A stretch of 63,952 nucleotides of DNA, the filler included, from Thraustochytrium aureum (taxonomy: Eukaryota): NCBI GenBank assembly GCA_012862495.1. It is 5 parts of 4 records of this genome, joined end to end, with 100 filler letters (N's around TTAATTAATTAA, not from the genome) between each part and the next. Parts side by side here need not be neighbours in the genome. Positions count along the whole stretch, not along the records: positions 62,575 to 63,952 come from BLSG01000358.1; 4 more parts are not named here. One strand, 5' to 3'. Below are positions 26,552 through 63,952 of this stretch, one piece after another; the first letter of the stretch is position 1; each line of letters begins with the position of its first letter. A program made the translations under genes and the position numbers. The notes beneath the pieces were generated by a model that worked only from the letters and a program-made list of their open reading frames with translations, searched no databases and was not told where the DNA came from.

Positions 26552-26595
26552 NNNNNNNNNNNNNNNNNNNNNNNNNNNNNNNNNNNNNNNNNNNN

Positions 26596-26607
26596 TTAAT
26601 TAATTAA
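26596..26607. other. Artificial scaffold linker (stops in all six frames)
   Basis: TTAATTAATTAA with 44 N on each side. Confidence 0.97.
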
Positions 26608-27129
26608 NNNNNNNNNNNNNNNNNNNNNNNNNNNNNNNNNNNNNNNNNNNNCGCTGCACTCGAACGAACGCTCAACCTGCGCTCGCACTGCGCTCGACCT
26701 GTGCTCGCGCTGGCCGCGTCTGCACCTGATGCGTGTCTGCCAATCGCGCCTCGCGCTGTCCTCGGAGAGTCCTCTGCAAGATTCGCTCGAGCGGCTTCGC
26801 GGTAGCGAATCCACTTCAGGAAAAATCTGCCCCTTCTACCCCGCGCCGCCCGCAGCCACGTCACGAGCCACCCAATGTGACGAGGGCAATCCACTTTAAG
26901 CGCACGAAGATTTCGATTTAAAATTGTTCTTTCGTCACCAGGGGAAACCAAGTGACTCTGCAGACAGCCGGCGCGTCTCGGGGGGGAGCCCAGCCTTCGC
27001 GAGTCCGGGGAGGTATCGCGTCAGGTAGGGAGCTCTGTGACGTGGAGGTGGCCCCATTTCGTGAGTGAGTTGACCGAGGGCGCGGTCGTGCGGCAGAGCG
27101 GCGTCGCGCCCGGCCGGCAGCGGAGGAGG

Positions 27130-55470: not shown

Positions 55471-55650
55471 TCTGCCGACAAAAAAGAAGAAACCTTGCCT
55501 GCTCACCGCGCTCCAGTCAGCCCGCCGCAGCCCTGCCAAGCATCAACGACGCCAACCACCACCACCAATGACAACAACAACAACAACAACAACCGGCACA
55601 ACGAAANNNNNNNNNNNNNNNNNNNNNNNNNNNNNNNNNNNNNNNNNNNN

Positions 55651-55662
55651 TTAATTAATTAA
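55651..55662. other. Artificial scaffold linker
   Basis: N44-TTAATTAATTAA-N44. Confidence 0.97.
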
Positions 55663-56701
55663 NNNNNNNNNNNNNNNNNNNNNNNNNNNNNNNNNNNNNN
55701 NNNNNNGCGCCCGACGCGAGCGTCGACCCGCTCGATGGGCTTGCGCCGTGCGAGGCGCGGCCCGTGCTGGGCGTTGTTCAGATCTGGGTCGCAACTGGCC
55801 ACCGCCGGCGAGGCCTCGCGCGCCGCACGCTGGACACGGTGCGCGCACGCCGTGTACGGCTACGCCGTTCCTCGCTCTCGCGTGTGCTACTCGCAGCCCA
55901 CCAGCGAGGGCGCAAGACTGGGCCTCGCCTTCGCCTGCAGCGGAAGCCGCGCGAGCGACCGTCTCATGGTGTACTACCGGTACTCTTTATGGATGCATCC
56001 TCTTGAAACCCGGCCGACCTTGTTCGTTTGTTCACCGATGATCGACGAGCGTATTTCGAGCGCTCTTCAATCAATCCTTGATTGAAATTCATGAAGAAAA
56101 AGCAGTTGAGAAAAGGAAAAGTATAGCCGTTGGGCGCCTCCAGCGAGCTCGTGTGCCAGCTTTGGCGCGCAAGCGTTTTATTCATCCAGGAGATGCGCGT
56201 CGTTACGCGTGGCCACCGCTCTCGTGAATGAATTAGCTGCGTCGAGTGCGCCGCTGTGGCTGTGGGTCGACGAACGAGGGTTGGTAGAATGTGTCCGAAG
56301 CCCGTCAACGCTCACGCCACGGCGCAGAGACCACGGAGACGGCGCAACGCATCCAAAGCCATGCTAAGCGGTTGGTCTCAGTCGGTCAGCGCGGGAAGAA
56401 GGAGAAGCGGCTTGCGTATCGGAGGTCGGTCTCAGCGGCTCTCCAAGTGTCGTTGAGAAAGTCTTGCTTCCTATCATCGTCGTCCATGCCCTTTCGAGCA
56501 AGCAATCTCTCTGCGCGAGTCGCGTCGCGCGTGGCTCGTGCGCCCAGGTGCGCGCCACTAGAGGGCAAGCGCTCGTGGCGTGCAGCGCAGGACCGCGAGA
56601 CCTGGACAGAGGCACAGGCTAGGCGAGGTGGAGCAGTCGCCCTTGTAGACACGGTGAGGCGCTCCAATAAGTAGAGCAGCGCTGCTGCTGCTCACAGCAG
56701 C

Positions 56702-59607: not shown

Positions 59608-60765
59608 TCATTTTGTGACTGCCTCGAGTCGCTGCTTGCGGGCTACCTGCGCCCTATACTGGTCCAGCTCGCGGTCTTTGACGAGTCTGTGAGCATCCAC
59701 GACAGCCTCTGGGGAGAGCTGCAGGTCCTGCGCGGGCGCCGACTTGGACTCGGCCTCATCCTCGGCCAGGCCGTCGTCCGAGCTGGCGGCGCACTCGGGG
59801 CCTTCCTCTGCATTGGCAGCGCCAAAGTAGTCGGCAAGGACCGAGCGCCAAGCGTCGGCGATCTTTTGGGGCGGGGATTCTGGCGTCAAGCCGGGCGGCA
59901 TTCCGATCTTGTCCAACTTGTCGCGGCCGGGCGCGACGATGATGGGCTTGTTGGGGTCCACGTAGGCGGAGCGCTTCTTCTCCGTCCCAAAGGCAAAGTG
60001 GCTAAGGATCGCGCGCATGTAGGTGAGCGCGTTCTTGTCCTTGGGGCTCACGAACACGAGCCCGGCGCCAGCGGCGCAAGCGGCGTAGCGCAGCGCCTGC
60101 GACAGCGCCTTGCGCTTGAGCCCGTCCTCGCTCTCAAGCGCGTCGTACTTGGTCCCGAGCACGACGATGGGGACGCGCTTGCTGACAGCTCGGATGGCTT
60201 TGGTCCACTTGAGAGCGTCGTCGAACGCGTTCGAGGGGCGCGAGAGGTCCACGGCGACCACGACGCAAAAGCTCTTCTCCCTCTCGCGGGTCAGCACGAC
60301 TGGGACTAGCTCCTTGAGTTGCTCCCCGCCGCCGAGCTCCCAAATTTGGCACAGCTGACGCGCCCCTGTCGAGCTCGTCCGTCGCCCGAACGTGTACTCG
60401 AGCGCAACGGTGGGCTTTGGCTTTTCTTCTGGCCCCTTGGCAGGGTTGAGAAAGGTCGTCACCGCGGTGGTCTTGCCAGCATATTTCGCACCCACCACGA
60501 GCATAAACGTTGACTCTGCCGTCTCGGCCGCCCCGGGCGCTGCAGCGGCCCCAGCGAGCCCGGTCTTGGCGTCCTCGTCTTGGTTTCCGTCCCCCTCGGG
60601 GTCTCCGGGCCCCTCCGCCTCCTTCGCCTCCGCGGCTTTCTCGCCTCGTTTCGCGGCCTCCAGCTCTCGCTTGGCCTTGTCCCTGGCCTTCTCGATGTGC
60701 GCCCAGACATCGGGCCTCTTTGCCGTGCCGGCGTCGCTTCGCTTTCGCGCCGCGTCGGAAACCAT
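59608..60765 (-). CDS. DYNC2LI1: Cytoplasmic dynein 2 light intermediate chain (retrograde IFT)
   Basis: P-loop GAKYAGKTT, PKPTVALEYTFGRR, QIWELGGG, VDLSRPS, IVVLGTKYD, VDPNKPIIVAPGRDKLDKIG. Confidence 0.93.
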   Translation of the reverse strand: MVSDAARKRSDAGTAKRPDVWAHIEKARDKAKRELEAAKRGEKAAEAKEAEGPGDPEGDGNQDEDAKTGLAGAAAAPGAAETAESTFMLVVGAKYAGKTTAVTTFLNPAKGPEEKPKPTVALEYTFGRRTSSTGARQLCQIWELGGGEQLKELVPVVLTREREKSFCVVVAVDLSRPSNAFDDALKWTKAIRAVSKRVPIVVLGTKYDALESEDGLKRKALSQALRYAACAAGAGLVFVSPKDKNALTYMRAILSHFAFGTEKKRSAYVDPNKPIIVAPGRDKLDKIGMPPGLTPESPPQKIADAWRSVLADYFGAANAEEGPECAASSDDGLAEDEAESKSAPAQDLQLSPEAVVDAHRLVKDRELDQYRAQVARKQRLEAVTK

Positions 60766-60994
60766 CTCGCCTCGCCCGTGCGCACGCAGGGCGCAGCCAG
60801 CTGACCAGGCCACGGGATGGCCGAGCAGGCGCCAATGCCGACCTTCCTTCTTTCCTTCCTTTCGCACGGACTCGCGCACTGACTTGGCGGCGCGGCGCTC
60901 GCCACTGGCGCAGCATCTGGGCAGCTTCTGGCACGGATGCGTAACGGTAANNNNNNNNNNNNNNNNNNNNNNNNNNNNNNNNNNNNNNNNNNNN

Positions 60995-61006
60995 TTAATT
61001 AATTAA
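60995..61006. other. Artificial scaffold linker
   Basis: N44-TTAATTAATTAA-N44. Confidence 0.97.
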
Positions 61007-61701
61007 NNNNNNNNNNNNNNNNNNNNNNNNNNNNNNNNNNNNNNNNNNNNGAGTGGCCCCGAGTGGATCGGCCTATTTCGCCGAAAACCGCGAGTGATTC
61101 GCGGTGTACACCAGCTGTGGGGCCAGGTGTGGGGTGGGGAAGCAGTTTTCGCCTTTTTTCGGCGGTTTAGAAATGAGGCTCTGTGGGGCAATGCGCGGCT
61201 ACTGTGGGGAGTAGATTCTCCGAGGAGGCCCTAGGCGATTACTACGGAGGCTACCGGGTATTTACGGCGGTGAGGAGATTGGCGAGGCGCGGGCTGGTTT
61301 CACCGGGGGTTCTGCGTGGAGGCGCGATTCGCTTTGTTCTGCGTTCGTTTTCGTTTTCGATTTTTTTTGAAGTATTTTGTTCCGACGATCGGGTGATGAA
61401 TCACTGATGTTGACTGATCGCATCGCATGGATTGATCGCAGTCTGATGAGGTCATGATTCGCATGCGTGCCACGTACCACTGTTCCGATCTTGATGATGC
61501 CATGACGTGACAGACGTGAGTAGTGGATCATACGCGGGCATGAGGATGACGACAACAAGGGATTCTTCAGATCAGCCCTTGTCTGCCAGGACGGATTGGA
61601 GCCGCCAGTGGAGCGGCCGGCCGGCAGTCCCCCATTGACCGATTTGCAGCGGTCGGCTGCTCGAGCGACGCAGAGCCAAGTCGGCGCGCGGTGACTTGGA
61701 A

Positions 61702-62474
61702 ATGGACGTCTATGACGCACAGCCGTGGACCGCCGAGGCGCTCGGCCCCCTCTGGGATGACCTGTACTTGCTTGTGCCTGTCTACATGGTCTGCGTAGCA
61801 GCGCTGCGGCGGGTGGGCCCGTGGCGAGTGAGCGAGACGCAGAGCAAGTCGTACAAGTTCAACGCCGCGTTTTGGAAGCCCATCATGATCGCCTACAACG
61901 TTGCGATGACGCTGTTCTCGTTCGTGTGCTTTGCAGGCATGGCCTACGTCGTCCTCGTCAAGCAGCAGGGCGAGTTCGCGGGGCCGGACTGTCAGGCATA
62001 CGACAGGCAGCCGCTGTTCCGAAACATCGTGTACGCGTTCTTCGTGAGCAAGTTCGTCGAGTTCGCGGACACGCTGTTCCTCATCGTCAAGGGCAAGCCT
62101 GTGTCATGGCTGCACTTTTTCCACCACTGCGGCGCAGCAATCAACATGGGCCTGTTATCGCGTAGCGGCATGGAGGCGACGTGGTTGTTTGTCTTGCTGA
62201 ACGGGTTTGTGCATACGGTCATGTACACATACTACGGCTGCGCCCTGGCGGGGGTCCGCCTGCGCGGCAAGTCGCTCATCACGGTCATGCAGATCGCGCA
62301 ATTCCTCCTCGGGCTTTCCGTGTTCTGGCAGTACAAGAACGTCACCTGCTTTAGTCAGAGCACGCCGCTCATGTTCACCTTTTGGTACACTTACACGTAC
62401 GTCGGCATCGTGCTGCTCTTCTTCCTCAACTTTTTCGCGCAGAGCTACGTCATGCCGCGCAAGACAAAAGCGGA
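61702..62474 (+). CDS. ELO-family fatty acid elongase (delta-9-elongase-like); stop codon cut by the scaffold end
   Basis: SKFVEFADT, VSWLHFFHHCGA, LNGFVHTVMYTYY, ITVMQIAQF, FFLNFFAQSY, lysine-rich ER-retention-like tail. Confidence 0.92.
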
Positions 62475-62518
62475 NNNNNNNNNNNNNNNNNNNNNNNNNN
62501 NNNNNNNNNNNNNNNNNN

Positions 62519-62530
62519 TTAATTAATTAA
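62519..62530. other. Artificial scaffold linker
   Basis: N44-TTAATTAATTAA-N44. Confidence 0.97.
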
Positions 62531-63088
62531 NNNNNNNNNNNNNNNNNNNNNNNNNNNNNNNNNNNNNNNNNNNNGATGTTGAAAGCGTCAGCGCCGAAAG
62601 AACCTTCTCACTCCTCTGCAAAAGTCTGCGTGAGCTTGCCTCGAGGTGTGGCCTTTGCGGCCTTGCGCCGTTCTCTGATGCAGAGAGACCCGACCACGAT
62701 TCCTTTGCAGACACGGAAGCAATGCATGTTGTTAAATGGATACCCTGTTGCGGACATGCTTTGACGCGATTGCTCGATTGCAACCAGCGATTGTCTGCAC
62801 CGTGTCGAAACTTACTTGCTCCGTCTGCGGTGTTGCTAGCCCAGCGCTTTACTGTCGGCGCGGATGCTTTCGTTGAAGTCCGGTCCGGGTGCCACCTCTG
62901 CCGCGTTTTCGTTTCTTTGAACAGTGCTCAGTCGCCTGCACCGCCAACGCCATGCTGCGCTTGGTGTTGCGCTTGGTGTTGCGATTGTCCTAGTCAGACG
63001 TTCGGGGACTGCGACATGTGGTCTCCGGGGTCCTCCTCGCTGTTGAGGCTCTGCTTGACGCCTACTGAAACTCTAGAATAAGAGTTCA

Positions 63089-63480
63089 ATGAATGAAGGA
63101 GATCACCAGCAGTTTTTGATCAAGAATGAGAGCGCTAATTTTCTGAACCATTGCGGTGTTGGGAATCAAGGCAATCAACCATCAACTACATCGCTCTTAA
63201 CGCCGGCTTTGCAGTATTCCTATCACCGTTCACGAAGCTCATGCTTCGCCCCACCCGTGAAGAAATGCGCTTGAATCGCGGAAAAAAACATGGCACTGCC
63301 ACACCGGCTCTACGCCCGAAGGCCATCTTGTTGTGGCGATTCGTCTCGGTCGCTAGCGCGGCGGCCGGAATTGCCCTGATTGCTACGAATGCCAAGAATT
63401 CAGCCCACATTGCCTATGGCGGCGCTCTGCTCGGTTTCAGCATCGCTGCGTTCGTGTACACGCTCAAGAGACCACATTGA
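63089..63480 (+). CDS. Small hypothetical membrane protein; possible frameshift near 63140-63150
   Basis: ATG at 63089; ORF 63151..63480 has 2-3 hydrophobic helices. Confidence 0.4.
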
Positions 63481-63738
63481 AAGAATAACAAATGATTCGT
63501 GATGCTTCACGAACGAGGAAAGCCACGAATGTTTACATTTGCATCGAGCTGCATGCGGCTGGGTTGGAACGAACACAGTGAACTAAACGAACATTTTGCA
63601 CTTAAAACTCATGTTCGCTAAGGTGGTTTTTTGAAACGAAATGCTCCAGAAGGAATCGACGCGCCAAAAAGCAGCACGTGCAACATTTGCAGCAAAGCGG
63701 CGTGCGCCGCCCTTTGGCTTGCTCGCCCAAGCCCAGCC

Positions 63739-63952
63739 ATGTTCAAACCCGGATCGTTCTTCAAGAGCAAGTATGGCTTGGCCAGCAGCACCCTGCGGCT
63801 CTGGGCAGAGCAGCGACAGGACCTCCGCGTCGTCCGAACGCCCGGCGGGAAGCGCATGTACCACGCCGGCGACATGGACCGCATTCTCGGCTGCGACGGC
63901 GCCACGGCCACCGCAGGGGCCCGCGACGTCATTTACGCCCGCGTCAGCTCCG
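63739..63952 (+). mobile_element. tnpA: IS607-family transposase TnpA (MerR-like HTH plus serine recombinase), 5' part only, truncated by the window end
   Basis: My translation from ATG 63739: MFKPGSFFKSKYGLASSTLRLWAEQRQDLRVVRTPGGKRMYHAGDMDRILGCDGATATAGARDVIYARVSS; TLRxW...RTPGGxRxY HTH precedes the catalytic YARVS. Confidence 0.9.

Follow-up and report, generated by a model that had tools for sequence, protein, structure and literature searches.

The 5' end of an IS607 element of the Fanzor2 clade in a Thraustochytrium aureum assembly, with a nuclease frame likely overprinted on tnpA

A transposase fragment and its putative left end

The window analysed here, a stretch of 63,952 nucleotides from the Thraustochytrium aureum assembly, consists of five contigs joined by artificial N44-TTAATTAATTAA-N44 spacers at 26552–26651, 55607–55706, 60951–61050 and 62475–62574. 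Because the spacers are artificial and join separate contigs, gene order across them is meaningless, and the treatment of the window as one scaffold in an earlier, sequence-only reading is corrected accordingly. The element described below lies at the end of the last contig (or of its part inside the window), a piece of 1,378 bases that follows the fourth spacer (62575–63952).

A stop-free frame of 71 codons runs on the plus strand from an ATG at 63739 to the window end (63739–63951), encoding the peptide MFKPGSFFKSKYGLASSTLRLW...RTPGGKRMY...DVIYARVSS. The frame had been noted from the sequence alone, and we found no stop before the window end. GC3 rises from 0.56 ahead of this ATG to 0.87 within the ORF. 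The top NCBIfam match was NF033518 (transpos_IS607; E 2.5e-7, 30.4 bits, profile positions 4–64 of 187); as the window end truncates the protein, this score falls far under the cut-off of 110 bits set for the whole protein. Residues 11–49 (63769–63885, plus strand) resemble a MerR-like winged helix-turn-helix (HTH; Pfam MerR_1, E 0.0019, below the cut-off), and YARVSS follows at residues 66–71. Ser70 of this motif (codon AGC, 63946–63948, plus strand), whose column is aligned across relatives, is the predicted nucleophile; from established serine-recombinase knowledge, we take it to be the catalytic residue. A MerR-like HTH placed N-terminal to the catalytic motif is a trait of the IS607 family, and the earlier assignment of an IS607 TnpA architecture, with Ser70 at 63946, is borne out by the NF033518, MerR_1 and YARVSS matches.

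In a search of 1.84 billion entries, 54 representatives matched the 71-residue peptide at E ≤ 0.001. We scanned 30 matches (29 of these representatives and protein P0002), and 23 of them contained a resolvase domain located after the stretch that aligned to the HTH. Two database proteins among the 30 (P0038 and P0050) were TnpA-TnpB fusions, possibly prediction artefacts. Only one of 28 candidates for longer homologous proteins matched, a tblastn search of a phage collection gave just six weak HTH-like matches (best E 0.04), and a second copy of the element was absent within the window. Two other families were considered and rejected. A Tn3-type resolvase or invertase has its Ser near residue 10 and a C-terminal HTH, whereas the Ser found here stands at residue 70 behind an N-terminal HTH. 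A MerR or BldC regulator, or an excisionase, is at odds with YARVSS after the HTH, and the IS607 profile scored 30.4 bits against 22.5 for BldC. On the grounds of the open frame, the profile match, the homologues and the tree described below, the ORF is almost certainly the N-terminus of an IS607 TnpA.

Related DNA (<95% identity) was present in two Logan DNA runs, X1 and X2 (shares 0.07 and 0.05), as short pieces of the 5' part only, none reaching beyond 63879; the same search listed no RNA run. Two variants in run X2 over 63747–63828 alter five tnpA codons; four of these changes are silent, against an expected 23% (p = 0.012). An X2 contig aligned over 63556–63776 and was preceded by 163 unlike letters, that is, a different left flank; an X1 contig aligned from 63563. 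The putative left end, placed from this single X2 contig of depth 4.8, lies close upstream of tnpA and agrees with the earlier proposal that the left end of an element is present here. The putative left end and 5' leader occupy 63558–63738 (plus strand) and are conserved in X1 and X2, the exceptions being 21 nt inserted at 63656 and one 1-nt deletion. The leader contains an imperfect direct repeat of 18 nt (63568–63603), and a near-perfect inverted repeat (63557–63567 versus 63727–63738) joins the left end to the bases just 5' of the tnpA ATG. These repeats may be TnpA sites; the inverted repeat could also serve in autoregulation as such a site, or form an mRNA stem.

The predicted crossover (core) dinucleotide is the CG at 63556–63557 (plus strand), placed from the start of the X2 alignment, a single comparator, and from the right ends of relatives. 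These ends read AAGCG in L022, L023, L024 and L026 and AAGCA in L001; in L023 and L026, a weak inverted match that begins with CG was also present 151 and 199 nt, respectively, 5' of tnpA (13 and 11 of 20; next best 10). The family is characterised by ends that share a 2-bp core and lack terminal inverted repeats and target duplications. IS607 elements exchange DNA across this core, and their TAM matches the target (PMC6188088, PMC10690162). Together with the CG shared by the left junction and four of the five right ends, this points with modest confidence to a CG core rather than GG. Although TGGG occurs at 63560–63, a left end of the TGGG type known from CboIStron was set aside, as the X2 match reaches 63556. 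The exact 23-nt left-end pattern had no match in JGI metagenome contigs.

The 1 kb upstream of the element contained no Pfam family above the cut-off, and Atlas scores there were <0.9. A 79-aa ORF with two hydrophobic segments (63241–63480, plus strand) ends 76 nt before the putative left end (CAI 0.49, no family, best Atlas score 0.86). Short pieces at 62582–62672 and 62939–62976 are common with run X2 (<95% identity) and may represent a second repeat; they had no Pfam hit, and a plus-strand frame of the region reads SVSAERTFS, which we take to resemble the hAT C-terminal motif.

Relatives and the overprinted nuclease frame

Scans of viral, metagenome and GTDB contigs yielded 255 related loci. 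TnpB lay downstream in tandem in 25 of the 30 loci most similar to the 71 residues, and the other five were cut short. Nine of the ten nearest loci carried a downstream DPG TnpB (Fanzor2 type), the tenth being cut short; the Glu-ZnF-Asp arrangement, with Glu six residues before the zinc finger, was present in eight, and DPG alone in a ninth. Both features are Fanzor fingerprints (PMC10711439). Judging from these loci, a Fanzor2 nuclease gene very probably follows the tnpA fragment. No RuvC, zinc finger or right end of this copy was found, nor a TnpB remnant anywhere in the window. A mimivirus-style divergent TnpB upstream was considered and rejected, as none of 18 Fanzor2-type queries matched the window below E 0.1. 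The original suggestion of a Fanzor2/TnpB element holds for the nearest relatives, which carry a Fanzor2-type TnpB downstream, while this copy's own nuclease would lie beyond the window. The accompanying statement that the nuclease is not visible is right for the RuvC part but not for the N-terminus, since the +1 frame that encodes the relatives' nuclease N-terminus is present and open here. The right ends of all five relatives that were folded, each singly, had z scores of −2.0 to −6.9; RNAalifold on six aligned right ends gave no consensus structure.

The tree comprised 104 rows (88 of 174 dereplicated loci, namely the top 45 and every third, with 13 proteins and three fragments); L001 was left out because its YARVS motif is broken. 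The fragment, whose best identity was 49%, fell in a nine-row clade (SH-aLRT 99) with L022, L023, L024, L102 and a protein of the choanoflagellate Microstomoeca. This clade is nested in a 41-row clade (support 100) that contains proteins of Diversispora and Scutellospora (Glomeromycota) and L182, which adjoins an NCLDV major capsid gene. Of the 19 GTDB rows, 17 fell outside the 41-row clade and two inside, both on contigs of 2.0–3.5 kb. The phylogeny, which the earlier reading had proposed as a check, thus puts the fragment with the eukaryote/giant-virus type and not with bacteria, a placement that is provisional because the query occupies 35% of the tree columns. L102 (1,994 bp) and L103 (3,478 bp) are elements of the eukaryote/virus clade on short contigs in bacterial MAGs and are possibly misbinned.

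In the nearest loci, the TnpB ORF (577–624 aa) opens within ~40 nt of the tnpA start, in the +1 frame. Bacterial IS607 loci were added from three phylum samples, giving 345 loci in total; the TnpA core was intact in 286, and dereplication at 85% reduced these to 202. TnpB was in +1 relative to tnpA in 105 of 108 tandem Ealt elements, and 71 of these 108 had zero +1 stops over 155 codons (mean 1.4 stops; 10.5 expected). The expectation was computed from each element's own TnpB codon use; this replaced a synonymous-shuffle null because shuffles keep the shifted codon use and understate the effect. Split by source, these open elements comprise 25 of the 33 viral, 29 of the 35 metagenome and 17 of the 40 bacterial tandem Ealt elements. 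The frame was open in none of the nine canonical and none of the 13 divergent controls; the canonical set is small and includes a locus (L079) that is probably misclassed. A further 72 of the 202 TnpAs were unclassed, and 34 of them were also +1-open; of the 43 with no intact TnpB seen, 17 had an open +1 frame. FW and WF motifs occurred in the +1 frame of 83 and 68 of the 108 elements, versus about 16 and 12 expected.

Divergent tnpA/Fanzor2 pairs made up 24 of the 255 loci (L002–L018 and others, AT-rich viral); they have no open +1 frame and keep an N-terminal WF motif. The overprinted motif profile matched two of 13 divergent, non-overlapping Fanzor2 N-termini at E < 1, against one of 260 shuffles, and hhalign of the overprinted region with the divergent N-termini gave a probability of 66% (E 5.6e-5). 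Neither the profile of the overprinted region nor that of the divergent N-termini matched ApmFz2 (9B0L) in the PDB. In the relatives of the query, the Fanzor2 frame overlies tnpA in +1. Within the available parts of the IS607/Fanzor literature, overlap was at most partial or unspecified, and we found no description of a full +1 overlap of tnpA and nuclease.

The +1 frame of the window is stop-free from 63641 to the window end. At 63773, 34 nt past the tnpA ATG, the Tyr12 codon (TAT) and the G after it create an ATG. An ATG occurs at the same Tyr in the five nearest loci (L022, L001, L023, L024 and L102), where it opens TnpB ORFs of 577–624 aa. By this correspondence, 63773–63952 (plus strand) likely encodes the first 60 residues of an overprinted Fanzor2-type nuclease, with ATG 63773 as its likely start. 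TAT encodes this start-forming Tyr both in the window and in all five loci; the host genes use 8 TAT to 35 TAC, and the L022 TnpB 0 TAT to 12 TAC. The product for TAT retention over the six sequences is 7e-4, these sequences being related. For the window alone, the ATG together with the open frame has a p of about 0.05, and the chance of a stop-free +1 frame is 0.29 under host codon use and 1.0 under synonymous shuffling; taken alone, the open frame is weak evidence. The X2 variants alter four of the five affected +1 codons. An upstream ATG at 63641–63643 (plus strand) is in the same +1 frame and might be an alternative start if transcription begins before it; the 21-nt insertion at 63656, the same in X1 and X2, is in frame with this ATG.

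The context of the tnpA ATG is G at −3, T at +4; that of ATG 63773 is A at −3, G at +4. By the Kozak rule, the tnpA ATG is weaker than the second ATG, and their order fits leaky scanning; the A and G at ATG 63773 are not independent evidence, because they are dictated by TnpA residues. Given the rest of the reading, we somewhat favour leaky scanning as the route to the nuclease. The +1 frame might instead be reached by ribosomal frameshifting or from a separate internal transcript, or ATG 63773 might be incidental; we hold this to be a minority possibility, though one of some weight. The frame is open in bacteria too, to which scanning is not applicable, only 5 of 29 GTDB loci possess a usable +1 ATG within 60 nt, and the two TnpA-TnpB fusions, if they are not artefacts, would be in keeping with such an alternative. 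Against it, a usable +1 ATG within 60 nt is present in 25 of the 46 tandem loci from viruses and in 20 of the 31 from metagenomes, 60 of 69 +1 stops (in loci with two or fewer) precede the HTH Trp, and TAT is retained at the start site.

Host and integrity of the element

An eIF5A gene on the second contig (54994–55470, minus strand) is 82% identical to that of the thraustochytrid Hondaea fermentalgiana, in support of the protist host proposed earlier. As this is one gene on a different contig, it links host and element by co-assembly only. Other single-ORF host genes are an ELO-family elongase (61696–62472, plus strand) and a dynein light intermediate chain-like GTPase (59611–60879, minus strand). 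The tnpA ORF had a GC3 of 0.87 and, with an index trained on four host genes, a CAI of 0.72; the host genes ranged over 0.77–0.86 and 0.67–0.78, respectively. CAI was 0.36–0.61 in the 12 nearest relatives and 0.43–0.49 in flanking frames. Composition, which had been proposed as a check on bacterial contamination, is therefore host-like for this ORF. On the 62575–63952 piece we found no recognised host or viral gene. We consider it probable that the element resides in the host nuclear genome.

The element might alternatively lie on the DNA of a giant virus or mirusvirus (free or integrated), or of another eukaryote, that was co-assembled with the thraustochytrid. Its contig is short and unlinked to host genes, close relatives lie on IMG/VR contigs (L001, L182 beside the major capsid gene, and L200 in a giant-virus bin), and mirusviruses and nucleocytoviruses have been reported in co-culture with thraustochytrids. 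However, the ORF is closer to the host genes in codon use than any of the 12 relatives, the contig lacks a recognised viral gene, and we regard a viral or foreign source as unlikely. A bacterial contaminant contig bearing a pro-Fanzor IS607 element is highly improbable. L102, the sole GTDB row of the nine-row clade, does come from a Bacteroidetes MAG, and DPG/Ealt, often with the overprint, is common to cyanobacterial elements; yet L102 and L103 are contigs of 2.0 and 3.5 kb, the former with little beyond the element, 17 of the 19 GTDB rows lie across the 100-support branch, and the codon use of the ORF fits the host. A TnpA-only, internally deleted or decayed copy, truly of IS607 origin and with no working nuclease after it, would find parallels in near matches that break past the HTH (P0004, P0006, P0009 and P0035) and in the TnpA of L001, which is without the VSS motif. 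In the copy studied here, by contrast, 71 of 71 codons are intact, the motif is present, codon use is host-like, silent changes predominate relative to X2 and the +1 ATG is retained; moreover, TnpB is present in each of the 30 nearest loci whose flank is long enough, and we doubt that the copy is of this kind.

The fragment is a genuine 5' part of a Fanzor2-clade IS607 element. As for the whole, it is reasonably likely that the last 397 bases of the window are the start of a thraustochytrid-resident IS607-family transposon of this clade, with the nuclease and omegaRNA following.

Proposed mechanism and relation to known systems

By analogy with characterised IS607 elements, TnpA would bind the element ends via its N-terminal HTH, and would excise and insert the element by serine recombination across the 2-bp core (predicted CG) without target duplication. 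The nuclease–omegaRNA complex would cut empty sites beside a short TAM ending in the core, with the element being restored by repair; the template for this step is RNA-guided cleavage of empty sites and their subsequent repair (PMC10690162, PMC13565253). The element is expected to continue into a Fanzor2 gene and an omegaRNA right end. As in its relatives, the nuclease frame would overlie tnpA in +1 and open at ATG 63773, so that transposase and nuclease would be translated from one mRNA, through leaky scanning beyond the weaker tnpA ATG. A wider reading, which is tentative and which we ourselves find doubtful, joins these points: an active, host-adapted IS607/Fanzor2 family in thraustochytrid nuclear genomes might insert at CG and express transposase and nuclease from one mRNA via two AUGs 34 nt apart. 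The overprint would have been born in bacterial pro-Fanzors, would have created the Fanzor2 N-terminal extension de novo, and would have pre-adapted only this IS607 clade to scanning eukaryotic ribosomes; mimivirus-type elements would later have turned their genes divergent and lost the overlap.

Comparison with known systems draws on the available parts of the cited papers. The canonical elements IS607, IS1535 and CboIStron share the TnpA domain order and YARVSS and provide the mechanistic template (a 2-bp core, absence of target duplication, and a TAM linked to the target site), but have a GG core (PMC6188088, PMC10690162) where CG is predicted for the query; none of the nine canonical-TnpB elements sampled has the open +1 frame of the query's relatives. 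Cyanobacterial pro-Fanzor IS607 elements carry a DPG and Ealt TnpB in tandem behind tnpA (PMC10711439), often with an open +1 frame, and stand across the 100-support branch from the query clade. IS607/Fanzor2 elements have already been described in eukaryotes, stramenopiles included (PMC3673617, PMC3627910, PMC10711439); the stramenopile IS607-like sequences include those of oomycetes and Ectocarpus, and most eukaryotic ones are fragments (PMC3673617). These IS607EU-type elements (ACa-1/-2, ISvMimi and CRv-1; PMC3627910, PMC3673617, PMC13565253) have the same HTH-first serine recombinase TnpA, and the query's nearest relatives likewise pair TnpA with a DPG/Ealt TnpB; the query differs in its labyrinthulomycete candidate host and in being known from its 5' 397 bases alone.

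Fanzor2 activity is established (PMC10530073, PMC10432273). The mimivirus Fanzor2 ApmFz2 (L79 of Acanthamoeba polyphaga mimivirus, PDB 9B0L) was the best PDB match of the full L001 ORF (E 3.5e-26). It has an N-terminal extension past the TnpB core and a GGG TAM (PMC11832414, PMC10530073), whereas the ends of the query clade suggest CG. The divergent Fanzor2 loci (24 of 255) differ from the query's relatives in having no overprint, and their N-termini match the overprinted motif weakly. We found no labyrinthulomycete or thraustochytrid IS607 or Fanzor case in the literature searched, which covered few subscription papers; "IS607" was absent from thraustochytrid papers among the matches listed, and six taxon names did not occur in the available supplementary files of PMC10711439 and PMC10530073, which may give accessions without names.

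If the reading is correct, the range of IS607/Fanzor2 elements would extend to labyrinthulomycetes, protists that are cultured industrially, and the element would provide an RNA-guided nuclease of compact size whose TAM is predicted to end in CG. How the second gene of a bacterial two-gene transposon is expressed in eukaryotes, and why the pro-Fanzor clade alone crossed over, are two questions to which the overprint suggests a testable answer; to this case the window contributes a 5' fragment only. As a caution, cloning a Fanzor2 gene from the first ATG that follows tnpA may leave out ~200 N-terminal residues. Two observations on relatives concern the nuclease without its transposase. At L001:4001–4591, TnpA is without the VSS motif and the overprinted 577-aa nuclease frame is intact, as if the nuclease outlives the transposase. 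In G006, the giant-virus bin with L200, four TnpB matches were found versus one TnpA match, suggesting non-autonomous nuclease copies.
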